Shown one piece after another: positions 3-60,303 of a stretch of DNA of 64,000 nucleotides (its first letter is position 1; each line of letters starts with the position of its first letter). The stretch is from an uncultured delta proteobacterium. GTDB lineage: Bacteria > Desulfobacterota > Syntrophia > Syntrophales > UBA2185. The position numbers and the translations under genes were made by a program. Under the pieces are notes generated by a model. The model had not been told where the DNA came from and searched no databases. It saw only the letters and a program-made list of their open reading frames with translations. The DNA lies in assembly GCA_963695875.1 (NCBI GenBank), contig CAVOID010000003.1, positions 32,001 to 96,000 of the forward strand. Reading direction: 5' to 3'.

Positions 3-188
3 GAACAGGAAATGATTGCAAGTCCGGCGTCAGAGAAGCAGGGTGAATTGATAGGACGGCTCAATCATATCGAAGAGGAAGTCAACAAAATGAAATTGCC
101 GGCGTCTTTTGCTGACCAGTTCTATGTACTCCGCGGGCACATAAACTTTGTCCGTAGCCGACTCATGGATAGCATTCAGTCGCACTGA
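3..188 (+). CDS. 3' end of a probable TAXI-family TRAP solute-binding protein (partial, runs off the window start)
   Basis: Manual translation ...RLNHIEEEVNKMKLPASFADQFYVLRGHINFVRSRL...SH* with stop at 186-188; resembles the helical C-terminal tail of long TAXI-type receptors. Confidence 0.6.
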   Translation, partial: EQEMIASPASEKQGELIGRLNHIEEEVNKMKLPASFADQFYVLRGHINFVRSRLMDSIQSH

Positions 189-638
189 GGTAGATAGAGA
201 AAACTAGGTGCGAGAACAACTCAAACTATAAACCCTAAGCTCGTCTCCTTCGCCTGATTCTCATACCTGTACCTACGATCACAATAAACACCAAAAAATA
301 AGGATACTCAATTAAGTATATTATCGGTACAAGCATCCACCTTATTTTACTGCATGACATTTACCTCCATTCTCAATTTTCATATTTAATTCTTTAGCAT
401 CTACAAAATCAGAAAAATTGCATCATAAGATTCATTTATGATACTTTGGAAAAAAACAATGTGATGTTTGCATTCATAAATCATGTGTGATAAATTCAAA
501 GAACTTCTCCTTACTATGAGCCGGCCATACCGATACTCTTCGGGAGGCAGGAATATTACAATAACATTGACGGTTTAATTTATTATAGCACTATTACCAT
601 AGCAGTGGTCTGAGCCCATTGTTCAATAGAGGGTAACT

Positions 639-31588: not shown

Positions 31589-31608
31589 GACTATTTGAAG
31601 ATGAAGTC

Positions 31609-33615: not shown

Positions 33616-33738
33616 CCCATACCTTAAGGTTGCAATATACGAGGCTATAGGTGCATGACGGAAGAAAACGGAAATTTGATAAAATACCCTTGATCTACAA
33701 AGCATCATATTAAAATATCATTCTATAGGAGGGAAATA

Positions 33739-35923: not shown

Positions 35924-36086
35924 TTTATTTTGCCTCCCTCACCCATGATTTAACCTTGGGTATATGAGTGTTTTTCAAATGTTCCTCGATTTCATACGAG
36001 ATGGACGTATAGTAATTATTTCTTATCAGTTAATATAGTATTGTCAAGAAGAATAATCAAGGGTGATGACATCGGGATTCGACGCA

Positions 36087-37502: not shown

Positions 37503-37553
37503 GATTATTAATTAAGAACCTTTCTTTGCTTCTACAGGAAAATGTCTATTCGT

Positions 37554-37626
37554 TGTCATTTCGACAAAGGGGAATACTCTCTAATATTAGATAGTTATTA
37601 AAATTTCTCATTTCATTTGAAATGCA
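37554..37626. repeat. Degenerate REP-like palindromic element, copy 2
   Basis: TGTCATTTCGACAAAGGGGAAT ... ATTTCTCATTTCATTTGAAATGCA; shares the 12-mer TGTCATTTCGAC with 29504. Confidence 0.55.
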
Positions 37627-37642
37627 AACAATTACGCAACAC

Positions 37643-38592: not shown

Positions 38593-38694
38593 AATGCCTC
38601 TTTTTTATTGTATTTTCTCAATCAATATTATTATATACGATACATGTAAGATTTTCAATCATTATGAAACTCCTTGTGGAAGAGGTCATAGCGT

Positions 38695-40727: not shown

Positions 40728-42317
40728 TCACATGGATAGAATTTTTTCCGCCTCTTTCCTATAAGCATCCATTACATAGGGTATACCCGATATTCTGGCT
40801 GCTTCCTCTGTCAGTGACATAACATCTTTCTGGGATACGAGAGAGAGGTTGAAGTTTCTGCTCCCCGCCATGAGCTGCTGTAGCCCGGACTTAAATTTCT
40901 GGCTGAAGGTGTAGAGCCCTATGGCACCAAAGGGAATATTCTTCAATTCGTTGCCGTATTTCTTCTTCAGCTCTTCGTAACTGACAAATATTTCTTCAAC
41001 AGTGTTACCGTATTTGGAAACCGTCTTCGGCAGATCTTTCGCCTTTAACCACTCTCCGATATTCTTACCCACCATACCGGGTATCATTAAACCTCTTCCC
41101 ATGCAAACTGCTTTTACATAGGGATTGCCCATTGCTATGGCCTTAAACACACCATCTTCCGTTGAGAATCCGCCGGCGATGGCAATATCAGGAACCCTGA
41201 TCTTCCTCTTCTTCAATTTATCGCAGAACTGCTGAGTGAGACACTGGATGTAGAATGTAGGAATGCCCCATTCGGTCATCATCGGCCAGGGACTCATCCC
41301 TGTTCCGCCCGGTGCCCCGTCTATCGTCAGGAGGTCTATTTCTGCCTCCGCACAGTAGCGAATGGCCATGGCAAGCTCAACAGCTGAGTATGCACCTGTC
41401 TTCAGTGTTATTCTCTTGAAGCCCACTTTACGTAGTCTCTCCACTTCCTCGAAAAATCCTTCTTCTGTCACAAAACCGAGTCGCGAGTGTCTCTCGAATT
41501 CTTTGATCGCCCCGTCTTTGAATGCGGCCTGGTTTTCAGACAGGGTGGGATCGGGCAGGACAATATACCCTCTCTTTTTCAGCTCGATAGCCCTTTCCAG
41601 GGAATTGACCTTGATTTCTCCGCCGATACACTTGGCGCCCTGTCCCCATTTCAGCTCAATCGTATCCAGCTTATGCTTATTGAGTACATATTCGGCCACG
41701 CCGAACCTCGTATCCTCGACGTTCATCTGAACGAGGATCTCACCATAGCCTTCATAGTAGCGTTTGTATGTTTCAATACGGCGATCCATTTCCGGAGACT
41801 TTTTTACCTTTCCCTTGCTGTCCAGCTCAAGCCCAGGATCAATCCCGCAGACATTCTCACCACACACAATGGTGATACCGGAAATGGCAGCGCCGACGGC
41901 AAAATGCTCCCAGTTCTTGCGGGCAATCTCTGTCGAACCCAGTGCACCCGTAAAAATCGGCAGACGCATCTTCACTTTTTGCTTCCACCCATATTCGGTT
42001 TCTGTGTCAACAGCAGGAAAAATCGCCGTATCGGGACCAGGCTTAACACTTTTTGGCAAGCCCATTGCGCCTACGGCATAACCCTGAATGCTGAGGTGGG
42101 AGTAATCGATAGGATAGTTCTTGTCAGCCCCGGCAGTCATTTCCCCAAAGCTTATGGGATACAAGACCTCACGGCCCCTGAACGTCGATAACCAGATTTC
42201 ACAGCCACCCCTGCATCCGTCAACACATCGCGTACAGATACCCGACATGGGCACCACATCTCTCGATCGGTTAAATGTTCCTGTCGCCTCGTTTGCATTT
42301 GGTTTTCTAAGATTCAT
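40728..42317 (-). CDS. Stand-alone FMN-binding glutamate synthase family protein (GltB2-like)
   Basis: ELKWGQGAK, LKTG, IDGAPGGTG, IAGG, MGR; N-terminal CTRCVDGCRGGC. Confidence 0.9.
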   Translation of the reverse strand: MNLRKPNANEATGTFNRSRDVVPMSGICTRCVDGCRGGCEIWLSTFRGREVLYPISFGEMTAGADKNYPIDYSHLSIQGYAVGAMGLPKSVKPGPDTAIFPAVDTETEYGWKQKVKMRLPIFTGALGSTEIARKNWEHFAVGAAISGITIVCGENVCGIDPGLELDSKGKVKKSPEMDRRIETYKRYYEGYGEILVQMNVEDTRFGVAEYVLNKHKLDTIELKWGQGAKCIGGEIKVNSLERAIELKKRGYIVLPDPTLSENQAAFKDGAIKEFERHSRLGFVTEEGFFEEVERLRKVGFKRITLKTGAYSAVELAMAIRYCAEAEIDLLTIDGAPGGTGMSPWPMMTEWGIPTFYIQCLTQQFCDKLKKRKIRVPDIAIAGGFSTEDGVFKAIAMGNPYVKAVCMGRGLMIPGMVGKNIGEWLKAKDLPKTVSKYGNTVEEIFVSYEELKKKYGNELKNIPFGAIGLYTFSQKFKSGLQQLMAGSRNFNLSLVSQKDVMSLTEEAARISGIPYVMDAYRKEAEKILSM

Positions 42318-42382
42318 GCCTTTACTTCTCCTTCCTCTTATTATGGTATTATTTCAGATACTTTTCTTAGTACCGAATAGAA

Positions 42383-43409
42383 CTATTTACTTTTAAATGC
42401 CCTGCAAATTTCGGAAAATTTACGCAGTTCCTGAAAATCCATCACTGCAGCCATACCACGATTTTCTGTCTGTGATCCCAGCCTCTTGGGCACACGCAAT
42501 CGGGTTGAGTCCTCCTGTAAGAATCAGTCCTACTTTATTTAAATCCACATGTACTTGACAGACAGGTTCGCTCACTTCACCAATGGAAAGAACGCCGCCT
42601 ATTCTTACTTTATTGAGCTTGAGCACAAGTTCCTCGACAAGGGTCTTACATGGTGCAGGAATTTCCCTGAAGTTTGCCAGGATCTTACCCTCTCCCTGTT
42701 TAAGAACGTTGCGGACTGAGGTCATTTTTGCCATGATAAAGGTCTCTGACGGATCGAGTGAGGAGCCGGAATAATAGATCAGCTCAACAAATCTGAGCGG
42801 TTTCCTATCTTTTAGCTGAAGAATCCCCGCAAATTTTGAGTCCATGGGAATGCCTGCCTTCAGCAAAACACCGTTGATCACAATGCTGCAAACTGTTGCC
42901 AGACCGACCTTTACCCGCCGGTATAGGCACATTGCCCAACTGATCATGCTCTCCAGCAACCGCCACGAGATCACTCACTGCCATCCCTGCTTCAAAGGCC
43001 GGCCTCATTACCTTTGAGGGCATCTTTAAACTGTTCCTTAGGGAAGAGAGAAATATTCACGGGAAGAAGACCACGGCCATTAACAGGATCAAATGTTGTT
43101 CTGTAAGCAAGAATTTCTATGCGGGAGATGGCAAGTCCCACTTTATCCTGAACCATCGCATTATTGACTTCGTCGATGCCTCTGTCTGTTACAATTCTTC
43201 CCTCCCTTCTGCCTACAAGGCGAGTCAGCCCCCTTTCATCCATGAGCTTCAGATGATAACGCACAGCGCGCTCACTCAACATTACGCCCAAATCCTGCAT
43301 ACGTCTAGCAATAAGCCGTGCACCGACAGGTTGTCCGCTTTCTTTGAGAATTTGCAGGATAAGGACTATTTTTCTTTCAATTCCTCGTAGAATCAAAAAG
43401 TTTCTTCAT
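42383..43409 (-). CDS. nrpR: NrpR-family nitrogen repressor (wHTH + DUF128/NRD; several frameshifts)
   Basis: GARLIAR...ERAVRYHLKLMDERGLT wHTH; across frames LPVNIS, ATVCSIVINGVLLKAGIP, RFVELIYYSGSSLDP, LANFREIP, GGLNPIA. Confidence 0.88.
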
Positions 43410-43416
43410 AAGGTAA

Positions 43417-43434
43417 TCGGCAATTGTTTGCCGA
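43417..43434. promoter_or_regulatory. Candidate NrpR operator
   Basis: Perfect inverted repeat TCGGCAA-TTGT-TTGCCGA (GGCA-N6-TGCC core) 7 bp upstream of the nrpR ATG. Confidence 0.55.
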
Positions 43435-43699
43435 CGCTATTAACAATATTACTGCTTACTTGTCAACAATAATGTACCATTATTTGTTTATTTTTAAGCA
43501 AAAATGTGCTATTTTCCGTGCGAAGATTTCCATAAATTATACCTTTTTTCAACATGGCATCTTTGATATAGTAAATCTAATGATCTAATAATTATTATTT
43601 ATTTTACCGTCATGCGACTGAGTCTTTTTAGTTAGAAAATAGTAGATCGGATAAAATCACATCGCGGACAATATACATAATCACAGGGAGGAAGATCGT

Positions 43700-44947
43700 A
43701 TGGTCAAGACAAATCCATTTGGTATTGCAAACAGACAATTGGATCAATGCTCAAGAATTTTGAACCTGGAACCGGGCATTCATGCAGTACTTCGAGTACC
43801 TATGCGAGAACTTCATGTATCCTTACCAGTACGAATGGATGATGGTTCAATAAAAGTATTCCAGGCATTTAGAGTCCAGTATAATGACGCAAAAGGTACG
43901 ACCATAGGTGGGATCAGGTTTCATCCAGAAGAAACGATAGATAATGTCCGCGCCCATGCAGCATGGATGACATGGAAGTGCGCACTTCTTGATCTACCTC
44001 TCGGCGGCGGAAAAGGTGGTGTAATTTGTAATCCCAAGGAAATGTCGCAGGGAGAACTTGAACGCTTGAGCCGAACATACGTCGATAAACTGGGGCAATT
44101 CATAGGGCCGGAAAAAGACGTACCTGCCCCCGATGTATACACAAACCCGCAGATCATGGCCTGGATGGTAGATGAATACTCAAAACTCTGTGCAAAGAAT
44201 CAGTTTGGAGTCATTACAGGAAAACCAATCCCTCTTGGTGGTTCCGAAGGTCGCAGTGATGCAACAGCACGCGGCGGTCTGTACACGGTTCGTGAAGCAG
44301 CTCAAGAATGCGGGGTTGATCTTTCACAAGCAACAATAGCAATTCAGGGCTATGGTAATTCAGGCTACCATGCAGCAAGGCTTGCCACATCCATGTTGGG
44401 CTGCAAAGTGTTAGCTTGTAGCGACTCCAAAGGTGGTATTTACAATAAGGAAGGGCTTGATCCGGAAGCAGTCGGCATCCATAAGGCAAAGACATCTTCA
44501 GTTATTAATTTCCCTGGTGTAAAACCGATATCAAATGAAGATCTGCTGGAACTCGATGTGGACATTCTCATACCTGCTGCCATGGAAAACGTAATAACAG
44601 AAGAAAACGCCGGAAGGATCAAAGCCAGGATCATCGCGGAGCTGGCCAGTGGACCGGCAACTACCGAAGCCGATGAAATCCTCCATAAAAACGGTATTCA
44701 TGTGATACCGGACTTCTTATGTAACGCCGGCAGCGTTACCGTATCGTACTTTGAAATGGTGCAAAATGCCTATATGTACTATTGGGAAGTAGAAGATGTG
44801 CATAAACGTCTCGACAAGAAAATGACAACGGCATACCATTCAGTCCTCAATGCTTCCAGGAAGTACAATATCAATATGAGGCAGGCTGCTTATGTTGTTG
44901 CAGTTGAGCGTGTCGTTGAAGCAATGAAACTTCGCGGCTGGGTGTAA
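43700..44947 (+). CDS. gdhA: Glu/Leu/Phe/Val dehydrogenase, glutamate dehydrogenase-like
   Basis: GGIRFH, MTWK, GGGKGG, VPAPDVYT, TGKP, GRSDATARG, QGYGN, VSYFE. Confidence 0.88.
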   Translation: MVKTNPFGIANRQLDQCSRILNLEPGIHAVLRVPMRELHVSLPVRMDDGSIKVFQAFRVQYNDAKGTTIGGIRFHPEETIDNVRAHAAWMTWKCALLDLPLGGGKGGVICNPKEMSQGELERLSRTYVDKLGQFIGPEKDVPAPDVYTNPQIMAWMVDEYSKLCAKNQFGVITGKPIPLGGSEGRSDATARGGLYTVREAAQECGVDLSQATIAIQGYGNSGYHAARLATSMLGCKVLACSDSKGGIYNKEGLDPEAVGIHKAKTSSVINFPGVKPISNEDLLELDVDILIPAAMENVITEENAGRIKARIIAELASGPATTEADEILHKNGIHVIPDFLCNAGSVTVSYFEMVQNAYMYYWEVEDVHKRLDKKMTTAYHSVLNASRKYNINMRQAAYVVAVERVVEAMKLRGWV

Positions 44948-45021
44948 TTTATTCCGATCTGGAATGATGAAAGTAATATAGGAACTTGGCACAAAAAAAA
45001 GGCAGGTTCACAAAAGCCCTA

Positions 45022-47631
45022 TTATTCAATATAGCAAATTGCTTTCTGTTTCTGCGGATCAGCTGCAACTTTAGCATATTTTCCTCCAGTTGTTGCCAGC
45101 AAATCAACAATGTGTACCACATTTGTGAATTTAACCGCACCCGGCAAGAGATCTGTGAGGATATTGGGTGAGTTTTCGAAAAATTCATGATTGAAATCTG
45201 CTTCGGGGTCATTTGGATAAACCGGCATATAAATAATCCTCGCTTCGACTAAATCCAGGAAAAAGTGTGTGCCATAGGAAAATTCGGGTAAATGTCCTGC
45301 CTCCTCACGAGCAATTTCCACAAGTACAGATGCATTATTTATATCAACATAACTCACATTGACACCAAGATCGATATTGCTGCTTCCCCATCTGCCAGGT
45401 CCCATCATCATGATCTTACCCTTTGCGATCATTGGGTGATTATTTATAGATCCGACCAAGCGGCCCAGGGATTTCTTTACATCCATGGACTCAACAGCAG
45501 CATAGCGTTTAGGGTCGATATACAGTATGTAGCGGATGTCTGAAATTGTTCCGCCACTGATAGTACGACTGGATTTGAACAGTATGCGATCCTTTGGCAA
45601 CTCATCGGGAAAGGTTACCGGACCGATCGCTCCCGGTATTGTCATCGGCCGGCATTGCAGCAGATTGATCCTGACACGACCACTAGTATCTATAGAAGCT
45701 GTGAATTCTGTGTCTAGTGGATGTCCATAAGCTTTTTCAAGTCTGGTTAGCATGTCATCCATAGTCTTTATGAAATCGGTACGGCTAATCAGGTTGTTAA
45801 AAGTAAGAACAAGCTGCTGTGACGAACTGTCTAGCCGTCCTGTGAATGGATCCATCAGATAGCCGTCTGCCAATAAAGAAACGAAGAGGTGAAGATGGGG
45901 ATAGTCCCTATCGGCCAGGACGTCAATAGCAGACATAGTCGTGAATTCATTCTTCTCTAAATCAAGGATATCTGCCTCCCATTGGGAATACTTTGCAATA
46001 CGGCCTCCATACTCCGGTCTGAGCTCTGGATGGCTTATGGCGATCATTCTGGGATAGTCATTTCCAACCCTGTTCACAGCACGAGTCCCCAATCCGAATA
46101 CAAGGCGGATCAATCCCTTTGTCGCATCTATGCGATCAGTCCATGCATAGAGATTCCTCGAGCAGGCGACACCTGCAAGAGACGGGAAAAAGTATTTTTT
46201 ATATGGCATCCCCGAAACACGCTGCACAAGGATAGCCATCTGTTCATCTCTATCCTCCAGATCCATAGCCCGGCGGTAGGATAGGGCGTCTGGATTCAGG
46301 GCACTGGCATATACGAGTTTCACGGCTTTCAAAAACGCTTCCAGGCGTTCTTCGGAACTACCTTGATTTGCACAAAATTCGCTGCGGTATTTTCCGGCAA
46401 AGGCATTCCGAAAACTATCTTCCAAAAGACTGCTGGATCTGACAATGATTGGCGCCTGACCGAAATAATCTAAAATGTTATAGAATTGTTCAGTGATCTC
46501 CGGGGGGAATTTGCCCCCCAGAAAACGCCTTTCTACTTCCTCAAATTCATCATGGGAAATATGGGAACTTCGGGTCAACTGCAGGCGCAGACGGAAGAGG
46601 TCGTTGTTTACCAGAAAGGTGAAGAATACATCCGATCCGATATAAAAAGAGTCGTGGGTTTCCAGGATCTGTGTAAAATCCTTGGTCCCGTCCTCCATGA
46701 GGATGCGTCTTGCCAGAAGCATCCCAGCTGCCTTTCCACCAATTTGACCCGACCCGATTAATCGATCCCGTATACCCAGAAGATCACTAATTTTGAAATA
46801 GGAGTCCGCCAGCCTGTTGAATTCGGGATGGCTCCCTATCATCATCCGCAAAAGCTCCTGTTTAAGGGCTGAGATTTCCGGTATTGTTTCTGATAGATCC
46901 TTTTCCGTTTCCTGGTATTGCAGCAGTTTCCTGAATACACTTTCCCATGGGGCTATCGATTTTGCCATAATGTAAAGCGGTTTTTTACTAGCCCTTTCAG
47001 ATACCGCTGCGGCATCCCCGCTGTAAAAAACAGGAACCCAGGCTGTGCCCGACATCATGTGAGGAAGGAACATCTGAGGAGAGTATCTGTCCCATACTTT
47101 AAGCGGATGGAGGTACAACATTCCCTGTACATGGTACACATCAATCAGCAACTGGGTCGTGTCTCTAATCCTTGCGACGGCACTGTGGGCGTGTTGACCG
47201 CGTGTTAGGGCAAAGTATGCAACTGTGTCCATCTCAAAAAGATAGGGACATGTCACCTGGAAAAAATTTGCCAGAAGCTCATCAGTTGCCCATTGAACGA
47301 CAAGAGCAGAGAGGTTATCAAATATATAGAAGGCTTCTCTACCAAATGATTCTATAATTTTATTGACTTCACCGCTAAAAGTGTCAAAACCCGCCTCCGG
47401 ATTCAACCTAATGACTGTGAGACCTGGCCGGGATTCAAGAATCTCGGAGTGAGGTGCAAAACGTAGATAGACGCATTTCCGTCCATCTAAAATAGCCTGA
47501 GCTGCGAAAGGTTCCGCAAAATACTTGTACTCCTCCAGATAGTCAACCTGCCAAACGACATTGTCGCCATATCGTAGGCCCTGAAGCACCTCATCAAGTG
47601 AAGATAGGCCGCTTTTTATTGTTGTTTTCAT
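45022..47631 (-). CDS. Fusion of a degenerate RecA/KaiC-like domain and a PEP-synthase/PPDK nucleotide-binding domain
   Basis: SGLSSLDEVLQGLRYGDNVVW and IFDNLS; IGGKA, VRSSSLLED, FAGKY, GLGTRAV, DTEF, LQCRP; C-terminal SYGTHFF. Confidence 0.85.
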   Translation of the reverse strand: MKTTIKSGLSSLDEVLQGLRYGDNVVWQVDYLEEYKYFAEPFAAQAILDGRKCVYLRFAPHSEILESRPGLTVIRLNPEAGFDTFSGEVNKIIESFGREAFYIFDNLSALVVQWATDELLANFFQVTCPYLFEMDTVAYFALTRGQHAHSAVARIRDTTQLLIDVYHVQGMLYLHPLKVWDRYSPQMFLPHMMSGTAWVPVFYSGDAAAVSERASKKPLYIMAKSIAPWESVFRKLLQYQETEKDLSETIPEISALKQELLRMMIGSHPEFNRLADSYFKISDLLGIRDRLIGSGQIGGKAAGMLLARRILMEDGTKDFTQILETHDSFYIGSDVFFTFLVNNDLFRLRLQLTRSSHISHDEFEEVERRFLGGKFPPEITEQFYNILDYFGQAPIIVRSSSLLEDSFRNAFAGKYRSEFCANQGSSEERLEAFLKAVKLVYASALNPDALSYRRAMDLEDRDEQMAILVQRVSGMPYKKYFFPSLAGVACSRNLYAWTDRIDATKGLIRLVFGLGTRAVNRVGNDYPRMIAISHPELRPEYGGRIAKYSQWEADILDLEKNEFTTMSAIDVLADRDYPHLHLFVSLLADGYLMDPFTGRLDSSSQQLVLTFNNLISRTDFIKTMDDMLTRLEKAYGHPLDTEFTASIDTSGRVRINLLQCRPMTIPGAIGPVTFPDELPKDRILFKSSRTISGGTISDIRYILYIDPKRYAAVESMDVKKSLGRLVGSINNHPMIAKGKIMMMGPGRWGSSNIDLGVNVSYVDINNASVLVEIAREEAGHLPEFSYGTHFFLDLVEARIIYMPVYPNDPEADFNHEFFENSPNILTDLLPGAVKFTNVVHIVDLLATTGGKYAKVAADPQKQKAICYIE

Positions 47632-48138
47632 TTTATAATTTAATAAATCTTGTTCAATAATGTTTTTACCTAATGAATAGGCGCAGTTACATATACTAAA
47701 AAATTAAGTTTTTTCAAATATACTCTTTCTCCTGGATTGTCCCTCTGAAACCTAACATTTTGAGAAAAAATAACCCAAAGATACTAAATATCAAGAAACC
47801 TCAATGCTTTTCAAGTTTCGGCTCTTCAAGAGCCTTATTTTCGATAAAAAAGAGCACAAATAAACGAACGTAAAAAGAAGGGACAGTGAGATCGATTTCA
47901 CTAAGCGGCCGCGTGAACATATAATGCACATAGCTGCCCATCTATCCGTAAAGCAACAAAAATGATTCAAATTACAGAGGACAGGAAAAAAGTTGGGCCA
48001 CTGAAGTAACTAGGGTATAGTCTAAATTTGGACAATTTAATTACTATATACAAAATTGATCATATATTTACAAAGTTCCATTTTTCTTATGTTATCTTAA
48101 ATTAATAAATAAAGAACATTTTTGTTATTCCTTATATA

Positions 48139-48155
48139 TTGGCCTTGATTTTGCT
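48139..48155 (+). promoter_or_regulatory. Candidate sigma54 (-24/-12) promoter
   Basis: TTGGCCTTGATTTTGCT with exact GG-N10-GC spacing, upstream of the 122-aa gene and the sigma54 activator. Confidence 0.55.
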
Positions 48156-48481
48156 TTTAAAATACATTGTCGTTCTAAATTTAAAATAAAAGTTGCATTT
48201 TTGTATAAAATATTTTATATGAATGTAAAGAAATATTATTTTAAAAAATGAATTTTTTTAATTTATTTATTTCAAAAGGGAACATTTTTGTTATACATCA
48301 GTTAATACTGCTGTGATTAATATTGTCTCGGAGGTCTGATCAATACAAATTATCATCCTTCGCTATTCATGGATAAGGGTAATATATTAACAAAAAACAG
48401 TCAAGGCATTACAAGTGGAATGTAGGTTTGGTTGAATAAAAATTATTCATTTTTCAAAACTATATAAAAAAGGAGGAGAAT

Positions 48482-48850
48482 ATGTCTATTAATTGGGGTC
48501 CTTTCTTTATTGTTCCGTCTGAGTCACAAAGGACTCTTTCGGGAAGGGTTGTTTTAAGGGAAAGTTTCGATGAAGAATTACTAAAAAAGGAACTGGACCA
48601 GCTCGGATATTCGCATGCTGCTATCAAGGCAACAAATCCATGGTACTATCGCAAAAAGAACACCGAATCCTGGATAAAGATTGACGAATCTGCAGACAGA
48701 CAAAATAATTTCGCTGTTCCCTGGGAAACAACAAAGTTGGAAAATGGTGAATACCAGATTCTGGGTGTCATGCACGTATCAATCAAAAAAGGCGATGATG
48801 AACAAATAATTGCCAGACAGAATATAATGGATGTTACGATAAAGAATTAG
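48482..48850 (+). CDS. Hypothetical protein (122 aa, possible beta-sandwich)
   Basis: Strong AGGAGG RBS, intact ORF, WETTKLENGEYQI motif reminiscent of Ig-like domains. Confidence 0.75.
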   Translation: MSINWGPFFIVPSESQRTLSGRVVLRESFDEELLKKELDQLGYSHAAIKATNPWYYRKKNTESWIKIDESADRQNNFAVPWETTKLENGEYQILGVMHVSIKKGDDEQIIARQNIMDVTIKN

Positions 48851-48863
48851 CTTCTGAAAGAAG

Positions 48864-48887
48864 CCACTTATATTAAGTGGATTTTTT
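48864..48887 (+). terminator. Probable intrinsic terminator
   Basis: CCACTTA-TAT-TAAGTGG followed by ATTTTTT. Confidence 0.5.
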
Positions 48888-48950
48888 ACTAAAGCATTTC
48901 GCAATTGAGTAAAATCCTATATCAAGAAAGGGAGGGGTTCTGCATTAGAG

Positions 48951-50561
48951 ATGACTAAGCCCATATGGAGTCCATCGCAGATTGGAACAACGGGTGGTAA
49001 AGACTTAAGTATTCATAATTACGAGGAACTTGCCGCGCTTCATGCAATTGCAAAGATACTGGCACAGCCCCAGGAGTTACGGGATCATCTTGAGCAGGTC
49101 CTGAAGGAGATGAGTCTTCGGCTGGGAATGGAACGAGGGATGATTTCCCTTCTTGACCGTGAGACCGGGGAAGCCTGGCTTGATATCGCCCATGGTGTCA
49201 ACATTCAAGGGCTTGAAGTCATGTATAAACCTGGCGAAGGTATTACAGGTAGGGTAGCACAAACTGGCCGTCCCATGGCAATTGCCAATCTTGGCAAGGA
49301 GACACACTTTCTTGACCGTACAGGTGCGCGGCGTTCACTAAACAGAGCCGAACTTACCTTTCTGTGTGTACCAATTATTTATGATGCCCGTGTTGTTGGA
49401 GTAGTTTCTGCAGACAAGGTGGCACGCAATGTGGAAAATCTTGATCGCGAACTGGCCATGCTTTCATCGGTTTCTGTACTTATTGCCAGAGCTGTCCATA
49501 CGCGCGCCCTCGAGGAGGAAAACCGCCGTCTGAGAATGATTGTCGGCCGTTCACAAACCCCGTCTGTTGATATCATCGGTACTTCCAGGTCTATGCAGGA
49601 AATCTTTGGTCTTATTGCTCAGGTTGCCGATACGAATACAACAGTATTAATAAACGGAGAAACCGGTACCGGCAAGGAACTAGTAGCAAGAGCAATCCAT
49701 CTGAATAGCTCGCGAAAAGAAAGGCCACTCATTTATGTAAATTGTGCTGCAATGCCGGATACTCTGATAGAAAGTGAACTCTTCGGCCACGAAAAAGGCG
49801 CATTCACGGGTGCTCTGCACCAGCGGAGGGGCCGCTTTGAAGAAGCTAATGGCGGCACAATCGTTCTTGATGAAGTCGGTGAGCTATCCGCAGCAGCTCA
49901 GGCAAAGTTGTTGCGGGTCCTACAGGAAAGACAAATCCAGCCTTTGGGATCATCAAGAGTTGTGAATGTCAATGTTCGTGTAATAGCTGCAACCAATAGG
50001 GACCTTGATCAGGATATTATCTCGGGACGGTTTCGTACCGATTTATATTATCGTCTGAACGTGTTTCCGATTTACTTGCCATCGCTTCGAGAACGGGGCA
50101 GCGATATTATAATGCTGGCAGACCATTTTGTTATAAAATATGCGAAGGTACTTAACAAGCCGGTTAAACGAATTTCTACACCGGTACTGGAAACATTTTT
50201 GTCCTATCAGTGGCCGGGCAATGTTAGAGAACTTGAAAACTGCATGGAAAGGGCGGTCTTAGTGGCAAACGGTGATACTATTGAAAGCCTTCATCTCCCT
50301 CCGTCTCTTCAGGTAAAGGCACGGGATGGAGAGAAAAAAGAACAAGGAAAATTGAAAAATGTTGTCGAAAGTCAGGAGAGAGCCCTTATTATCGATGCCC
50401 TGAAGGAAACAAGGGGAAATCAGAGCAAAGCCGCAAAATTACTTGGTACCACAAAGAGAATTACCCAGTATAAGATTCAGAAATTCGGTATTGACCCATG
50501 GCAATTTCGTCCTAAGAGGAATGGGGCAATAGTAAATCATTTCGAAGAAGGGAAAATATAG
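48951..50561 (+). CDS. GAF-AAA+-HTH sigma54-dependent activator (NifA-like architecture)
   Basis: GAF (PGEGITGRV), [36 protein letters not shown], Fis-type HTH. Confidence 0.93.
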
Positions 50562-50793
50562 GTTAATATGTGACAATTTTGTTACTAATATCATTAAAAA
50601 ACATAATTGTTCTTTCTTATTGAGTAAAGGGATTATTTCCCTCTTATATTTGCATACTGTTTATTTGACTTTAGTTAAAAATATGTGTAGTTGAAACCCT
50701 GTTTTTTATGGAAGGTACATTTTAGTTTAATTAATACAGGCCTTGTGTATAGCGGTATTCCCTGCCTGGATAGTTAAAGAGAGGAAAAAATTT

Positions 50794-51925
50794 ATGTGCC
50801 GTTTATTTGCTATTACAAGCACAGAACCCCTTTCCCCGATGGTTGCATTGCGTGCTATTGATGTCATGAAGGAAGGTCATGACGGGTCAGGTACAGGACT
50901 GTTTATGACCGATCTGGCTGGTGGCTTTGAGCATCTCAGGAAGGGGCCAATTCTGTCAGGTACCTTTACCAATGAAGGAGTCAAAGTACTGGACCGTTAC
51001 ATGATGGATCGCGATTTTATGGTGAAGTACGAGCTTTCGATTCGCCCAACAAAGCAACCACCTCCGGGTACACCGAAGAGGGACAACTACCTGATCCGTG
51101 TTTATGAATATCCGCCCGGATGGGAAGCGCTCAGCGAGGCGGAGATTCAGTTTCGTTTGATGATGACCCGCTTACAGCTGCGAAAAATGGGAGAAGAAGA
51201 CGGGTCCATGATGATTTTCAGCTTCTGGCCCGATGTTATTATGATCAAGGAAGTCGGCGATCCCATGGTCATTGCGGATTATCTTGGGCTGAATCGAAAA
51301 GAGCTGCAGGCCCGTACGATGCTTGCCCAGGGACGGCAGAATACCAACTACGCTATTAACATCTATGCGTGCCACCCTTTCTTTATCCAGGGAATTGCGA
51401 CCATGACTAACGGGGAAAACACTGCATTTGTCCCCATCAGAGAATTTCTCATGTCGCGGAATTTTCCAGGTTACATCGGATATCAGTCGGACTCGGAGAC
51501 ATTTACTCATATCCTGCATTACACGATCAGACATTTAGGGAAGGGCTTGGATATGTATAAACATGTGATTACCCCCCTTAAGGGATGAAGAAATGGAGCA
51601 TCACCCCGATGGCTCTTGGCTGCGCATGTTAAAGCAGAGCTGTCGTCCTTTAATTATTGACGGTCCAAACTGCGTTATGGGCTGTCTGCCGGACAAGACT
51701 CTTTTTATGGTTCAAGACAGCAAGAAATTACGCCCGGGAGTCGTCGGCGGAAACCCCGGGATGTTTGCCTTTTCTTCTGAAATGTGCGGGCTGGATGCTA
51801 CAATTCCGGCACGTGATAAAAGCCGGGATTTTCAACCAATGAAATACGATACTGTTATAGTCGGCCCGGAACGTCGGGAGGTAGAGATATGGAATCAATG
51901 GGATGCATTACCCCATCCACACTAA
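50794..51925 (+). CDS. Glutamate synthase amidotransferase subunit, class II GATase, GltB1-like (frameshift at ~51583)
   Basis: N-terminal MCRLF (Ntn Cys), QGRQNTN, HPF, NGENT, SDSE, IIDGPN, LRPG, SSEMCG. Confidence 0.9.
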
Positions 51926-53527
51926 GTACAAAAGATCTGCCCTGGATAATCCTCTGGAATAAGGAAAAATGCACCCTCTGCGGTAGGTGTACTGCAGTTT
52001 GCCCTGTTCGTGCAATTGAGCTGGGAGTTCACAGGAAGCGGGCCATACAGGTATCCATCGGTCTGGAGGAAAAGCCCGGCAATCTGTTTACAGCGTTTAC
52101 CACGGCATCGACCAGCGTACAGACCCGGTCCATGCCTGTGTGGGCTGTGGAATGTGCAATCTTGTCTGTCCGAACAATTGCATAATCCCCGTCCATAATG
52201 AGGAAATTGATAAATTGCGCTTCCATATTAATGTGGGGGGCGTTCCGCGACGACGTGGCGGACGTCGCAACGTACCAGGGGCTGTGTCTGGATCAGATCA
52301 AATTCATCCGCATTTCCATGCTAACCGACCCGGCCCTGGATGCTGGACGCCACGAATTTGAACTGAGGACCCTTTTAGGACGAATTCTGCCGCCCGAGGA
52401 GATGCTGAAGGTCACCAGGGAGACACGGCTGGATACCGCCGGTACGGGAAATTTATCCCCTTATCATCGGAAGCATGTCATTCGGTGCTCTGTCGCCCAA
52501 TATGTGGGAAGGCCTTCAGATGGGCGTGGCCTATCTGAATGAAGAACTGGGGATGCCAGTGCGGATGTGTACTGGCGAAGGAGGCTGTCCGCCGAGGCTG
52601 CTCAGGTCTCGATTTTTGAAATATGTAATTCTCCAGATTGCTAGCGGTTATTTTGGCTGGGACGAAATCATCCATGCCCTGCCCGAGATGAAGGAAGACC
52701 CCTGCGCCATCGAAATTAAGTACGGTCAGGGGGCGAAACCGGGTGATGGCGGCCTACTGATGTGGTACAAGGTGAACAAATTGATCGCCGCTATCCGCGG
52801 TGTGCCGTCCGGTGTCAGTCTGCCCAGTCCGCCTACTCATCAGACAAAATATTCTATCGAGGAATCCGTCGCCAAGATGATCCAGTCCATGTACATGGCG
52901 TGGGGTTTCCGGGTACCCGTGTATCCGAAGATTTCGGGAACGAGTACGGCTCTGGCGGTTCTGAATAACCTGACGCGAAATCCCTACGCGGCGGCACTGG
53001 CCATCGACGGCGAGGATGGCGGTACCGGTGCGGCATATAATGTCTCAATGGACCATATGGGACATCCCATTGCCAGCAATATCCGGGATGCCTACCTGAA
53101 TCTGGTCAAGCTCGGGAAACAGAACGAAATTCCGCTGTTCGGCGCGGGCGGCATCGGTAAAAGCGGCAACCTGGCAGCAAATGCAGCCGCCCTGATCATG
53201 CTGGGGGCAAGCGGTGTACAGACTGGAAAATACCTGATGCAGGCCGCAGCCGGATGTCTTGGTTCTGAAAGTGATCGCTGCAACATCTGCAATATCGGCA
53301 TCTGTCCGAAGGGAATTACTTCTCAGGATCCGCGGGTGGATCGAAGACTGGACCCGGAAAAGGTCGCCGAACGTCTAGTGGAAATCTTTCTCAGCTTTGA
53401 CACGGAACTGAAAAAAATTGTTGCGCCTCTGGGTCGCTCCACATCGCTTCCCATCGGTATGTCCGATGCCATCGGCATTGCGGATCATCATGCTGCGGAG
53501 CGACTTAGTATACGGTATGTCTGTAGT
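51889..53527 (+). CDS. Glutamate synthase FMN subunit with N-terminal ferredoxin, GltB2-like (several frameshifts)
   Basis: CTLCGRCTAVCP and CGMCNLVCP; MSFGALS, TGEGG, QIASG, EIKYGQGAKPGDGG, DGEDGGTGA, GCLG...RCNICNIGICPKGITSQ. Confidence 0.9.
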
Positions 53528-53538
53528 AAGGAGTATTC

Positions 53539-55872
53539 ATGTCAAACAAACCAACAATCATTATTCCCGGCATGGAAAAAGGCATCCGTGTCGATTCAAG
53601 GATCCTGGAAGAACGTATTCAGAAAGCTGTCGATGACGGTCATCGATGCATAGAAATAATTGCCCATGGTCAGCATGGAATTGGCGGCCGTCTGTGGAGG
53701 GCAGGGACAGAGTCTGTCCTGATCAGGGTGATGGGGACATCTGGACAGCGAGTCGGTTCCATGGGATTTCCCAATACCTTCATTGACGTTATCGGACCGG
53801 TCTCCGATGATGTAGGATGGCTTAATGCCGGTGCCCAAATTGTTGTTCGCGGCAATGCGACCAACGGTGCGGGTAACGCTATGGCTCAGGGTAAGATTTA
53901 TGTTGTGGGTGACACCGGTGCCCGCGCTATGACGATGACAAAGCATAATCCTCGTTTTGATCCTCCGGAACTGTGGGTGTTGGGAAGCGTGGGGGATTCC
54001 TTTGCCGAGTTCATGGCTGGTGGGATTGCTGTTGTCTGTGGACATAATACGCCCCGTAAGGATAACGTTCTCGGTTATCGCCCATGCGTCGGTATGGTAG
54101 GAGGAAAGATATTCTTCCGTGGATATCATAAAGGCTTCAGTGCGGAAGACGCCAGGTTGACGAAACCCGACGATGACGAATGGCAGTGGTTGATCCTCAA
54201 CATGAAGGATTTTCTCGATACTATAGACCATTCGGAATTGTACCCACTCTTGACCAGTGAACGGGAACAATGGCAGCTCCTTGTGGCCCGTAAGCCTCAT
54301 GAAAAGATTGGTAAGCTTTCCAGAAAGATGAATCAATTCCGTAAAGAAGTCTGGGATCGGGAACTCGGGCCGGGGGGGCTTATCGGCGATCTGTCCGATA
54401 TGGATAGAAGCCCCATCGACGTAATTACAACAGGCATACTGCGTCGATTTGTTCCTGTATGGGAAAATGACAAATACCTGCCGCCCTGCCAGGCGAACTG
54501 TCCCACCGGCATCCCCGTGCAAAAGCGGTGGGAATTGATCCGCCAAGGGTTAATAGAAAAGGCCGTAGATCTGGCACTGTCATATACTCCCTTTCCGGCG
54601 ACCGTTTGCGGGTATCTCTGCCCGAATCTCTGCATGGAACACTGCACACGGCAAAAAGAAAAACTCCCACCGGTCGACATTACCCTGCTCGGCAAGGCCA
54701 GCTTGAAGGCGACGTCGCCGGAGCCTGCTCCCAAGACAGGCAAGAAGATCGCCGTAATCGGCGGTGGGGCATCGGGGCTATCCGTTGCGTGGCAGCTGTG
54801 GATGAAGGGGCATGAGCCGGTCATTTACGAGATGCGGGCTCGCCTCGGCGGAAAGATTACCGACATGATTCCAAGCAGCAGAATTCCTGACGAGGTAGTG
54901 GAACATGAATTGAACCGGGTTAGCGAACAGGTTACCCACATTAATTTGAAGCATCCCCTGACAAAAGAGGAGTTTGTTCAACTCAAGGAAAAGCACGATT
55001 TCACAGTAATTGCCATAGGGGCACAGAAGCCGCGGATGATTCCTGTCCCAGGCAATGAAAGGACAATTCCGGCGCTTGAGTTCCTCAGGCAAAGCAAGGC
55101 GGGCATTGCACAGGTGGGAGAAAAAGTGGTTGTCATAGGAGCAGGCAATGTCGGTTGTGATGCCGCGGCAGAGGCTGTGAGGTTGGGAGCTAAAGAGGTA
55201 ATTCTCATCGACATACAGGAACCCGCATCGTATGGGAAAGAAAGAAAAGCTGCCGAAGCCGCAGGGGCAAAATTCTTATGGCCCCGGTTCACCAAAGCTA
55301 TTACGGAAGAAGGCGTAGAACTGACGGACGGGGAGGTACTACCGGCAAATACGGTCATCGTGTCCATCGGTGATCAACCTGATTTAGCTTTTTTGCCGGA
55401 AGATATTACCACCGACAGAGGTTTTATCGTGGTGGACGACCACTATCAGACCAGCGATCCCGAGGTTTTCGCCATCGGTGATGCCGTCAAGCTGGGTCTT
55501 TTGACGGACGCCATCGGCGCAGGACGCCTCGCAGCAATCGCCATCGATAATGTGCTGAAAGGTTGGTATGAGACCTTTGATAAGCTGCCCCCCATTGACC
55601 CGGGGCGGGTGAAGCTGGAATATTATGACTCCCGCATTCTCGCTTTTGATGATCCTGCGTATTGTGCGTCGCAGTGCGCATCATGCGGGGCATGCCGGGA
55701 TTGCGGTCTTTGCGAAACTATCTGTCCTGTAAATGCCATTTCAAGGCAAGAACTGGATGGTGATGCCTATGAATACAGTGTCAATGATGACAGATGCATC
55801 GGTTGCGGATTCTGTGCCGGGGCATGTCCTACAGGGGTATGGCTGCTCATCGAAAACGAACCTCTGGAATAG
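53539..55872 (+). CDS. Glutamate synthase GXGXG domain fused to GltD-like FAD/NAD(P)H oxidoreductase and ferredoxin
   Basis: GQHGIGG, GDSFAEFMAGG, GMVGG; CQANCP, GGGASG, GAGNVG; C-terminal CGACRDCGLCETICP and CIGCGFCAGACP. Confidence 0.92.
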   Translation: MSNKPTIIIPGMEKGIRVDSRILEERIQKAVDDGHRCIEIIAHGQHGIGGRLWRAGTESVLIRVMGTSGQRVGSMGFPNTFIDVIGPVSDDVGWLNAGAQIVVRGNATNGAGNAMAQGKIYVVGDTGARAMTMTKHNPRFDPPELWVLGSVGDSFAEFMAGGIAVVCGHNTPRKDNVLGYRPCVGMVGGKIFFRGYHKGFSAEDARLTKPDDDEWQWLILNMKDFLDTIDHSELYPLLTSEREQWQLLVARKPHEKIGKLSRKMNQFRKEVWDRELGPGGLIGDLSDMDRSPIDVITTGILRRFVPVWENDKYLPPCQANCPTGIPVQKRWELIRQGLIEKAVDLALSYTPFPATVCGYLCPNLCMEHCTRQKEKLPPVDITLLGKASLKATSPEPAPKTGKKIAVIGGGASGLSVAWQLWMKGHEPVIYEMRARLGGKITDMIPSSRIPDEVVEHELNRVSEQVTHINLKHPLTKEEFVQLKEKHDFTVIAIGAQKPRMIPVPGNERTIPALEFLRQSKAGIAQVGEKVVVIGAGNVGCDAAAEAVRLGAKEVILIDIQEPASYGKERKAAEAAGAKFLWPRFTKAITEEGVELTDGEVLPANTVIVSIGDQPDLAFLPEDITTDRGFIVVDDHYQTSDPEVFAIGDAVKLGLLTDAIGAGRLAAIAIDNVLKGWYETFDKLPPIDPGRVKLEYYDSRILAFDDPAYCASQCASCGACRDCGLCETICPVNAISRQELDGDAYEYSVNDDRCIGCGFCAGACPTGVWLLIENEPLE

Positions 55873-55969
55873 CGAAAAGATACAGTCTGCCACCCAGAGC
55901 GGCCTGATGTTTTCAGCAATAAAGGCACTTTAAGAGTGTAAGATAAAAAAACTAAGAAAGGGGTGTGTT

Positions 55970-57302
55970 ATGTTTTCATGCAAGACGAAAGCGGATGTTA
56001 TTAAAGCGGTCAAGGAACACAACGTCAGTTTCATTCAGTTCTGGTTTACCGATGTGCTGGGGATGCAGAAGATTTTCAGCATCACACCGTCCGAACTGGA
56101 GGAGGGGCTGGAAGAAGGGATGGGCTTTGACGGGTCGTCGATCATGGGGTTTGCACGGATCGAAGAGAGCGACATGATCGCCATGGCCGATCCGACGACC
56201 TTCCAGTTGATTCCCTGGCGCCCTTCCGACCGGCCGGTAGCAAGGATGATTTGCGACATTCTGAATCCTGACGGCACGCCTTATGAAGGTGATCCCCGTT
56301 ATGTCCTAAAAAAGTCCCTCAAAAAGATCGCCGATCAGGGCTATACTTTCTATGTAGGTCCGGAATTGGAATATTTCTATTTCGCCAATGACAAGACAAC
56401 GGACATTCTGGATCAGGGCGGCTACTTTGACGGCCTTCCCATAGACAGTGCCACCGACCTGCGGCGTCAGACGATATTTGCCCTGCAGGATATGGGGATC
56501 CGTGTGGAATATTCTCATCATGAAGTGGCACCGAGCCAGCATGAGATTGACCTCCGTTATGACGATGCCCTGAAGATGGCCGACAAGGTCATGACCTATC
56601 GAACAGCGATCAAAGAGATTGCCCGACAGAACGGTGTCTATGCCACCTTTATGCCCAAGCCTATTTTCGGCCAGAACGGCAGCGGGATGCATACCCACCA
56701 GTCACTCTTCAAGGGCAGCAAAAACGCCTTCTTTGACGGGAAGGATAAATACCATCTGTCCGCGGTGGCAAAAAGCTACATCGCCGGTTTGATGACCCAT
56801 GCCCCGGAAATTACGGCCGTCTGCAATCAGTGGGTAAACTCCTACAAGCGCCTGGTACCCGGTTACGAGGCACCGGTTTATGTCTCCTGGGCGCGACGCA
56901 ACCGTTCTACCATGATTCGTGTTCCCATGTACAAACCGGGGAAAGAGAAGGCAACACGCATCGAGTTCCGTTCGCCCGACCCGGCATGCAATCCCTATCT
57001 GGCCTTTGCCGTGATGCTGGCGGCCGGCATGAAAGGCGTAGAGAAGAAGTACCCACTCCCCGAACCCATCGAAGAAGATATCTTTGAAATGGATGAGAAG
57101 GCCCGGGAAAAGGCGGGAATCACCTCTCTGCCGGGGAGTCTATATGAGGCCTTGATCGTTAGTATCAAAGAGTAAGCTTGTCAGGGAAACACTGGGGGAT
57201 CATATCTTCCAGAAGTTTATTGAAAACAAGAAGGTGGAATGGGATCGTTTCCGGACCCATGTGAGTCAGTACGAAATCGAACGGTATCTGCCCATACTGT
57301 AA
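55970..57302 (+). CDS. glnA: Glutamine synthetase type I (frameshift at ~57160)
   Basis: FDGSSI, GPELEYF, HHEVAPSQHE, TFMPKP, NGSGMH, SYKRLVPGYEAP, RIEFRSPD; second frame LGDHIF...ERYLPIL*. Confidence 0.96.
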
Positions 57303-60292: not shown

Positions 60293-60303
60293 ATATATAG
60301 CGA

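Follow-up and report, generated by a model that had tools for sequence, protein, structure and literature searches.

How does an anaerobe govern ammonium assimilation when the genes for both routes lie in one stretch of DNA, together with an archaeal-type repressor and a sigma-54 activator? Nitrogen control is textbook knowledge for enteric bacteria, cyanobacteria, Bacillus and methanogens, and to our knowledge is largely undescribed for syntrophs, Dehalococcoidia and the uncultured anaerobes that dominate peat and sediments. We analyzed 64,000 nucleotides (hereafter the window; contig C3:32001-96000) from the genome of an uncultured Syntrophales bacterium from peat (2.86 Mb, 16 contigs, 82.6% complete), calling genes from an open reading frame listing and profile family scans across the window. 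A block at 40728-57302 carries genes for glutamate dehydrogenase (GDH), glutamine synthetase (GS) and glutamate synthase (GOGAT), along with the repressor NrpR, an orphan flavoprotein resembling the GltB2 part of GOGAT, an 869-amino-acid (aa) protein with a PPDK-family domain (hereafter the dikinase), a sigma-54 activator with a GAF domain and a 122-aa protein, p122 (Table 1). An initial reading of the letters alone (hereafter the original prediction) had seen here a non-Ntr circuit that switches between GDH and GS/GOGAT. We find that the block represents a conserved system of nitrogen control and assimilation in which an archaeal-type repressor is joined by a GAF-type sigma-54 activator and which is not based on NtrBC. 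It is probably a genuine Syntrophales nitrogen-assimilation supercluster of two separable modules. Module A, which would be governed by the activator, consists of p122, the activator, a three-gene split GOGAT and a GS gene (glnA) of the GSI-alpha type; module B, which would be controlled by NrpR, consists of nrpR, the GltB2-like gene, gdh and the dikinase gene. The reciprocal switch between GDH and GS/GOGAT in the original prediction found no support in our analysis.

The linkage within module B extends well beyond this organism. We scanned metagenomes with a 61-sequence dikinase alignment and took the best 80 loci of 599 relatives to map the neighbors of the dikinase gene. Open reading frames in the dikinase loci were called and clustered, and dereplication at 80% identity left 74 lineages: 54 with a full-length dikinase, 15 with a short form that lacks the KaiC-like domain described below, and 5 that were cut by a contig end and excluded. 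At least one core nitrogen gene was present in the locus of 41/54 full-length lineages, as against 2/15 short ones. GDH was found in 24 of the full-length loci (adjacent to the dikinase in 16) and 1 short locus, the GltB2-like gene in 13 (8 adjacent) and NrpR in 13 (6 adjacent), with neither of these two in any short locus. A sigma-54 activator was present in 15/54 full-length (8 adjacent) and 4/15 short loci (2 adjacent). GDH, GltB2-like or NrpR genes also adjoin dikinase homologues at a distance (40-66% identity) in Actinomycetota, Dehalococcoidales and metagenome contigs, and those titled Actinomycetota or Dehalococcoidales are 59-66% identical to the dikinase of the window. Far from scattering, the genes of module B (for NrpR, dikinase, GDH and GltB2-like protein) keep company across phyla, as the original prediction needed.

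A sample of 401 genomes from the phylum, plus 14 named control genomes, gave a similar picture. At a threshold of E <= 1e-50 the dikinase was present in 86/401 genomes, 62 with a full-length protein and 21 with short forms only, a split that we read from the match table. NrpR was present in 93/401 and, among the 14 controls, in the two methanogens only. It occurred in 32/62 genomes with a full-length dikinase and in 61/339 others (odds ratio 4.9, Fisher p 9e-8, with relatedness ignored), and in 2/21 genomes with a short dikinase only. By hand count, NrpR lay <=5 kb from the dikinase in 19 of the 32 co-occurring genomes. All ten loci that we fetched from this sample have the order dikinase-NrpR-GDH; these ten are a biased sample, chosen on tables that already placed NrpR near the dikinase. 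Five of them share one layout, in which the GltB2-like gene is followed by a spacer with 2-3 palindromes, nrpR-dikinase and a second nrpR with gdh. In L133, L134, L136 and L137 (also L135 and L138) the dikinase gene lies between two nrpR paralogues, one co-oriented with it and the other with gdh, and both paralogues carry a helix-turn-helix and one NRD domain.

Could this clustering be nothing more than a metabolic neighborhood, with no shared control and with accessory genes unrelated to nitrogen status? Glutamine-using genes (hisHF, carAB, guaA, purF) do cluster here and elsewhere, as housekeeping genes can. However, the linkage is conserved across phyla despite rearranged gene order, the contrast between full-length and short dikinase lineages lies within a single protein family, and shared cis motifs, described below, reach a gene on another contig. 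We consider a mere neighborhood very unlikely.

Several other genes recur in the dikinase loci, namely amtB, PII, GlnN, purF, carAB, hisHF and GAF-ANTAR genes. GAF-ANTAR proteins, possible antitermination regulators, are encoded beside or near the dikinase in L018, L020, L049, L066 and L067, some of them Actinomycetota-titled, and may represent a third type of nitrogen regulator associated with this enzyme. One clade of full-length dikinases (~42-44% identity; L050, L053, L056, L059, L062, L068 and L091) has LysR, flavodoxin-like and unnamed genes on one side, and a GDH gene of a ~31-32% identity type 0.2-6 kb from the dikinase gene.

Table 1. Genes and candidate regulatory sites of the block, in window positions.
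Feature	Position	Strand	Remarks
Orphan GltB2-like FMN flavoprotein, 529 aa	40728..42317	-	downstream of nrpR
nrpR (340 aa in relatives)	42398..43405	-	HTH_12 and one NRD domain; three frame breaks
Palindrome CGGCAATTGTTTGCCG, candidate NrpR operator	43418..43433		17 bp upstream of nrpR start in relatives
Single ACAATAATGT site in nrpR-gdh spacer	43466..43475		abuts TTGACA -35 box of nrpR promoter
Glutamate dehydrogenase, 415 aa	43700..44947	+	ELFV_dehydrog 260.7 bits, N-terminal domain 187.2 bits
Dikinase (DIK), putative phosphotransferase, 869 aa	45022..47631	-	PPDK_N 163 bits
Two ACATTTTTGT sites (48116, 48282) upstream of p122	48116..48291		flank sigma-70-like promoter
p122, conserved small beta-sandwich protein	48482..48850	+	no Pfam family
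One-component sigma-54 activator (GAF, AAA+ with GAFTGA, HTH_8)	48951..50561	+	profile matches
Tandem ACAATTTTGT and ACATAATTGT, 28 bp apart, upstream of gltB1	50573..50610		genome motif scan
gltB1-like gene (376 aa in relatives)	50795..51925	+	frame break near 51575; starts Met-Cys
Fer4 and GltB2 (FMN) subunit (544 aa in relatives)	51889..53530	+	at least 3 frame breaks
GltB3 (GXGXG), GltD-like and Fer4 fusion, 777-779 aa	53533..55872	+	domain matches
glnA, type I glutamine synthetase (443 aa in relatives)	55970..57302	+	frame break near 57160

The window copy of NrpR matches its families in pieces, and the intact NrpR of the close relative L013 matches HTH_12 with 67 bits and NRD1_2 with 271.7 bits (cut-off 25). 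GDH scored 599.7 bits against the archaeal GdhA model, under its cut-off of 750, and its catalytic-region residues are invariant in the aligned relatives. The orphan GltB2-like flavoprotein matches PF01645 weakly (69 bits over residues 285-412) and shares 22% identity with the operon's own GltB2 (E 8e-5), keeping the DG..GGTG stretch; it had no NCBIfam or PDB sequence match.

A palindrome upstream of nrpR offers a candidate operator. The sequence CGGCAATTGTTTGCCG is kept in 8/8 aligned relatives and has no other full match in the genome. The candidate came from reading nrpR upstream sequences, and we then counted it across loci: in intergenic DNA, GG[CT]A[AT]-N2/4-[AT]T[GA]CC occurs 18 times in 36.3 kb of NrpR-bearing loci versus 6 times in 83.2 kb of others (7 of the 18 are one site repeated in close relatives), and in coding DNA 25 times in 313 kb versus 39 times in 799 kb. 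These palindromes lie upstream of nrpR, the dikinase gene, gdh, the GltB2-like gene or hisH in various lineages. A blind palindrome search in 10 nrpR upstream regions returned no arm common to at least 4 of them, and the one GGCAA-N4-TTGCC that we noted close to a PII gene, on contig C6, falls within a long open frame and was judged a chance match. Position and co-occurrence point to GGYAA-N4-TTRCC as a candidate operator of NrpR, through which module B may be controlled as a cross-phyla unit.

The parallel with methanogens is close in some respects and loose in others. NrpR of Methanococcus maripaludis and Methanosarcina mazei belongs to the same HTH_12 and NRD family and acts on a 14-bp palindrome with GG...CC ends at nitrogen gene promoters. 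Methanogen NrpR is a repressor of nif and glnA that depends on 2-oxoglutarate (PMC9765008); this compound would be the expected ligand here too and, by analogy, may release NrpR from module B. Unlike the methanogen protein, the NrpR described here has a bacterial host, often comes as two paralogues per locus, is linked to gdh, the dikinase and the GltB2-like gene rather than to nif and glnA, and has GGYAA-N4-TTRCC where the methanogen consensus is GGAA-N6-TTCC. In PMC1852104, NrpR is a table entry only.

The least familiar member of module B is the dikinase, which divides into a KaiC-like domain without a P-loop (residues 1-216), an ATP-grasp region (~260-665) and a histidine-bearing, swivel-like region (~670-869). 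In a model built from the 61-sequence alignment (pLDDT 90, pTM 0.91), residues 1-216 superimpose on the KaiC CII domain (Z 20-21.5, root-mean-square deviation 2.6-2.9, ~200 residues) and thus have a RecA-like fold. Conserved G22-D23-N24 stands in place of the GxxGxGKT P-loop, and only a Walker-B-like D105 is kept, in 46/46 full-length sequences. The KaiC-like part is a single domain with no PF06745 match, so that both the P-loop and the duplicated domains of KaiC are missing. The rest of the model aligns with rifampin phosphotransferase 5hv3 (Z 26.2 over 397 residues, model 226-868 on chain -3..866), and residues 226-869 with the ATP-grasp and swivel parts of phosphoenolpyruvate (PEP) synthase 2ols (Z 25.5, chain residues 15-466 of 725). 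The motifs GGK, RSSS..ED, QCR, GPGRWG and SxGTH are invariant, as is H789 in all 61 sequences. The modeled protein thus appears to combine a PPDK-family ATP-grasp domain with a swivel histidine in the manner of rifampin phosphotransferase.

Fold, ATP-site motifs and the conserved histidine are shared with rifampin phosphotransferase and PEP synthase, whereas the added KaiC-like domain, the missing barrel and the nitrogen-assimilation context set the dikinase apart from both. It contains no PEP/pyruvate barrel, and its C-terminal 217 residues gave no Pfam match even at E 0.1. Scores against the family models were far below their cut-offs (25.4 bits versus 999 for rifampin phosphotransferase, NF041857; 42 bits versus 739.75 for PEP synthase, TIGR01418). 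The fusion of KaiC-like and dikinase parts that had been predicted is therefore correct as a description of folds, and the protein should be called neither KaiC nor PEP synthase. Its family is large and conserved, with >8,000 database matches, 867 clusters at 50% identity for E <= 1e-30, and 67-70% identity across phyla as judged by source names; members are annotated only as PEP/pyruvate-binding domain-containing protein or pyruvate, water dikinase. Searches of PDB sequences with p122, GltB1, the dikinase and the GltB2-like protein yielded no useful match.

From this modeled architecture we read the 869-aa protein as a putative ATP-driven phosphotransferase, and the phosphotransfer step in the original prediction is a possibility that its fold allows. 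The ATP-grasp domain would load the swiveling H789, which would then pass the phosphate to an acceptor. The KaiC-like domain, a pseudo-ATPase by which the nitrogen-linked branch would be recognized, is probably a docking site for a partner or a sensor for a ligand at the 2-oxoglutarate/glutamate node. A model for such a mechanism is EI-Ntr (PtsP), a sensory-domain protein of the same broad superfamily that reports nitrogen status via phosphate from a histidine. PtsP relies on PEP, contains a PEP-binding barrel as well as a GAF domain, and works with the partners NPr and EIIA-Ntr, none of which we saw here.

What would such an enzyme do beside GDH? A speculative reading, less likely than not, is that the dikinase, under NrpR control and together with GDH and the GltB2-like protein, performs an unrecognized step in nitrogen metabolism that is widespread among anaerobic bacteria in several phyla, either phosphorylating GDH, NrpR or PII or activating 2-oxoglutarate with ATP for ammonium fixation independent of GS. 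The first alternative can be stated more specifically: a regulatory enzyme that covalently modifies GDH, NrpR, PII or GS, as a counterpart of the enteric GlnE and GlnD, with the KaiC-like domain docking an oligomeric target. The swivel-histidine architecture is like that of phosphate-passing enzymes, GlnE and GlnD were not found in the genome at hand, gdh and an nrpR gene, or two, often lie beside the gene, and the KaiC-like domain distinguishes the nitrogen-linked members of the family. We nevertheless regard this as rather unlikely: the solved relatives (rifampin phosphotransferase, PEP synthase and HpeI, going by entry titles) act on small molecules, and where a regulator and an enzyme are encoded side by side, the control is usually transcriptional and not by modification.

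The second alternative makes the dikinase, the GltB2-like protein and GDH a metabolic route, in which ATP would go into activating 2-oxoglutarate or a similar acid, allowing fixation of ammonium at low concentration without GS. Operon-like spacing fits such a route (43-50 bp between the dikinase and GltB2-like genes in L019, L029, L032 and L035-L037; 26-28 bp between dikinase and gdh in L016 and L018). The GDH and GltB2-like families both act on 2-oxoglutarate or glutamate, NrpR control would induce the set at high 2-oxoglutarate, and PEP synthase, a relative by fold, works on a 2-oxo acid, from which it makes an enol phosphate. Yet the dikinase lacks the substrate barrel of the PEP/pyruvate type, we know of no precedent for this chemistry with 2-oxoglutarate, two ATP equivalents per nitrogen would be costly for a syntroph, and the organism also has GS/GOGAT. 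A metabolic route of this kind seems improbable.

The presumed regulator of module A is the sigma-54 activator. The protein matches Sigma54_activat (PF00158; 240 bits), GAF (54 bits) and HTH_8 (34.9 bits), and an intact GAFTGA can be read directly in its translation, which makes it a sigma-54 enhancer-binding protein. It is neither a NifA equivalog (474.1 bits against TIGR01817, cut-off 528.85) nor an NtrC, scoring 337 bits against TIGR01818 (cut-off 558.6) and carrying an N-terminal GAF domain and no receiver.

In alignments of the p122, gltB1 and gdh upstream spacers one motif recurred, ACAWWWWTGT. Its matches are about as frequent in the genome as base composition alone would give (71 versus ~69 expected by a hand estimate). 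Clusters of at least two matches within 200 bp number only four in the genome, and three of these lie upstream of p122, gltB1 and amtB-glnK. The fourth, C4:308313-308481, is in an AT-rich stretch where we recognized no nitrogen gene by eye. Between the two p122 sites is the promoter element TTGCAT at 48193, with a degenerate motif copy in its spacer, and these blocks are conserved in the relatives' alignment. The site in the nrpR-gdh spacer, ACAATAATGT, falls within the invariant block TTGTCAACAATAATGT of the relatives' alignment and may likewise belong to the activator.

One likely target is on another contig. Upstream of amtB-glnK on C11 is a tandem pair nearly identical to that of gltB1, its members 30 bp apart, and 77 bp downstream of the pair is a perfect sigma-54 promoter, TGGCACCAGAATTGCT (TGGCAC-N5-TTGCT), ~50-65 bp before the amtB start codon. 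The motif pair thus occupies positions 77-107 bp upstream of the promoter. The genome encodes sigma-54 itself (rpoN at C8:51110), and at amtB a -24/-12 promoter with upstream sites is in place. Distant loci with a homologue of the activator show the same arrangement, with tandem sites and sigma-54 promoters upstream of amtB (L093, L055, L046) or gltB1 (L044, L046). The activator would bind TTnACAWWWWTGTnAA sites and from there drive the sigma-54 promoter of amtB-glnK; sites of the same type also lie upstream of gltB1, of p122, of what would be the activator's own operon, and beside the nrpR promoter. Its GAF domain, in place of an NtrB kinase, may receive the nitrogen signal, either 2-oxoglutarate or PII.

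This proposal agrees with one made independently for Desulfovibrio vulgaris. In a computational reconstruction (Kazakov et al., PMC4641369), DVU1949 is a one-component sigma-54 activator, co-transcribed with a hypothetical protein, whose predicted regulon covers nitrogen metabolism and transport. The two systems share the site core ACAWWWWTGT (site lists of Additional file 3), targets that include ammonium transport and GS/GOGAT-type genes, and a one-component activator paired with a hypothetical protein; their recognition helices look similar as judged by eye. Module A may accordingly be governed by an activator of the DVU1949 type, with the difference that we found no sigma-54 promoter at gltB1.

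Could the motifs belong to other factors? ACAWWWWTGT might be bound by NrpR or a third factor instead of the GAF activator, and GGYAA-N4-TTRCC might be something else, such as a hairpin in the 5' untranslated region of nrpR. In this lineage the ACAWWWWTGT sites lie at sigma-70-like promoters, where they overlap the -35 box of p122 and abut those of nrpR and gltB1, which would suit a repressor, and the palindrome sits between the nrpR promoter and start codon, where it could fold in RNA. On the other hand, ACAWWWWTGT is also found with a sigma-54 promoter in four loci where an activator homologue is present and nrpR is not seen (L048, L055, L061, L093), and it agrees with the DVU1949 prediction, while the palindrome recurs before different genes and in tandem 22 bp apart, unlike a hairpin of one untranslated region. 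We find such an exchange of roles hard to credit, and continue to assign ACAWWWWTGT to the activator and the palindrome to NrpR as the preferred reading.

The remaining members of module A are the GOGAT and GS genes. In the relative, the Fer4-GltB2 protein matches PF01645 with 195.9 bits along with Fer4 domains, and the pieces in the window map onto this one gene. The GltB3-GltD-Fer4 fusion matches GXGXG (35.2 bits), Pyr_redox_2 (116 bits), Fer4_20 and Fer4_7 in the window, and PF01493 (35.7 bits, cut-off 32.5), Pyr_redox_2 (125 bits) and Fer4_20 in the relative. The FMN synthase domain, the GXGXG domain and the GltD-like reductase of a split archaeal-type GOGAT are thus all present. GltB1 had no Pfam, NCBIfam or PDB sequence match; its nearest Atlas clusters bear GltB1 or class-II amidotransferase as names (a lead only, at a score of 0.98), with GATase_2 on 33% of the members of one cluster. 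Intact relatives have three GOGAT genes (GltB1, Fer4-GltB2 and GltB3-GltD-Fer4), and not four.

GlnA of the relative is a type I enzyme (TIGR00653, 546 bits, cut-off 429) and falls well below the E. coli-type model (PRK09469, 318 bits versus 845), so that it is not GSI-beta. As had been noted, GlnA of the window has Phe in the motif EEDIFEM (residues 368-374), at what we take to be the position of the adenylylated Tyr in E. coli GS. By these sequence features the glnA of the block is of the GSI-alpha, non-adenylylated type.

p122 appears to be a nitrogen gene in its own right. Its 238 related clusters are all named hypothetical, and its model (pLDDT 84.7) showed likeness to Ig/FnIII-like folds only. 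It is present in 13 genomes of the 401-genome phylum sample, and amtB or glnA lies within ~1 kb of it in 7/9 loci fetched from other families. In other loci p122 is not tied to the activator, and together these observations indicate a gene of the nitrogen regulon itself and not a specific partner of the activator.

How far does the system depart from the enterobacterial Ntr scheme? The window has no PII, amtB or ntrBC gene, as had been noted, and no gene for a receiver-type enhancer-binding protein: all genome matches lie on other contigs or on C3 outside the window. The genome as a whole, however, has two amtB genes, each paired with a glnK (one pair on C11, the other on C14), and with a lone PII gene on C6 it has three PII genes, so that a circuit without PII is not borne out. 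No PF03710 match for GlnE, no GlnD and no enhancer-binding protein reaching the NtrC family cut-off was found in the 82.6%-complete genome, which has at least 14 sigma-54 activator-like genes (top NtrC-model score 463 bits versus 558.6). The genome-wide search for glnB/glnK, glnE and ntrBC that the original prediction had proposed thus went against it for PII and in its favor for GlnE and NtrC. Its non-Ntr circuit is partly supported: a one-component GAF activator takes the place of an NtrBC pair and candidate sites link gltB1, p122 and amtB-glnK, but PII is part of the genome. Shared with enterobacteria are PII proteins and a sigma-54-dependent amtB-glnK with tandem upstream sites; the GAF activator without a receiver, the non-adenylylated type of GS, and GlnD, GlnE and an NtrC-level enhancer-binding protein that were not found distinguish the system. 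A frameshifted sigma-54 activator-like gene lies at C14:4399-5642, ~3.5 kb downstream of the second amtB-glnK pair, whose upstream region is lost at the contig end.

Several observations weigh against parts of this reading. Eight close relatives have an upstream flank, and in six of them (L010-L013, L015, L021) modules A and B adjoin. In L009 and L022 other genes stand in the place of module A while dikinase-GDH-NrpR is kept, an arrangement that makes the two halves separable and also means that their adjacency in the window may carry no meaning. The window's single NrpR-type palindrome belongs to nrpR, with the start of gdh 270 bp away, leaving NrpR control of gdh and the dikinase unsupported in this lineage. 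The methanogen operator consensus, presumably GGAA-N6-TTCC, has no match in the block, and its sole match in the window is at 34444 (1.96 expected by chance). Upstream of gltB1 and gdh, in the window and 5 close relatives, there is no conserved sigma-54 -24/-12 element; the conserved promoters are sigma-70-like with the motif at or beside the -35 box, and so a role of the activator at these two genes is unsupported in this lineage. In other loci p122 and the activator are not linked. Which regulator would bind which motif has been assigned by position and co-occurrence only, and the signals and the target of the dikinase are likewise proposals; the NrpR/dikinase co-occurrence statistics take no account of relatedness; and at 82.6% completeness, the lack of GlnD, GlnE and NtrC is not proven.

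A sigma-54 consensus match at 48140, upstream of p122 and the only one in the window (1.26 expected), was set aside, being kept only in relative L015. Two spacers hold further conserved DNA. In L010-L013 the activator-gltB1 spacer contains ~130 conserved bp (alignment columns ~95-230; GGATGTGACATGCGATCTTATCTC...) that are missing from the window, and the dikinase-p122 spacer (window 47632-48481), unusually long at 850 bp, has the invariant blocks ACATTGTCGT and AAAATAAAAGTTGCAATTTTGTAT besides its motif copies. No Rfam family was found in window 36000-64000 at E 0.1, and a search for RNA runs containing window 42400-52300 returned none.

Many of the genes described here are interrupted in the window. 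The block contains at least 8 single-base frame breaks (three in nrpR, one in gltB1, at least 3 in Fer4-gltB2 and one in glnA). Those in nrpR, near 42474, 42913 and 43013, are 1-base insertions relative to short-read contigs of other sequencing runs (~97% identical), which have one base fewer at all three places; nrpR, the GOGAT genes and glnA are single open frames in short-read relatives. Outside the block hisF and gidA (window 36016-40588), carA and carB (57576-63330) and amtB (C11:1182-2371) are each split into at least two frames. We rejected genuine pseudogenes as the explanation, because essential genes are also broken and the three nrpR breaks are 1-base differences in independent contigs. 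The frame breaks are assembly indel errors, found assembly-wide, and probably lower the estimate of genome completeness too. Corrected gene models were taken from L013 (NrpR 340 aa, GltB1 376, Fer4-GltB2 544, GltB3-GltD-Fer4 779, GlnA 443), and every gene that had been listed for the block is present once the breaks are read through. The block is flanked by hisH, hisF, a radical-SAM gene and gidA upstream and by carA, guaA and carB downstream. Window 30001-34000 is low in GC (0.37-0.40 versus ~0.46 elsewhere), with a shift in AT skew.

A literature search that covered few subscription journals returned no paper on the function of bacterial NrpR or on the dikinase with GDH, and the gene set of archaeal-type repressor, putative ATP-driven phosphotransferase, GDH and orphan flavoprotein, common to several bacterial phyla, seems to be undescribed. 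The locus offers testable handles on nitrogen control: a bacterial NrpR with a candidate operator, a GAF sigma-54 activator whose motif matches an independent Desulfovibrio prediction, and a large, highly conserved enzyme family whose full-length branch is embedded in nitrogen-assimilation loci. We consider the module of NrpR, dikinase, GDH and GltB2-like protein, with its candidate operator, the most valuable outcome. Should the dikinase turn out to modify a regulator or GDH, or to power an amination with ATP, the 2-oxoglutarate/glutamate node would gain a new element, and knowing the role of this enzyme would aid the reading of nitrogen physiology from metagenomes.

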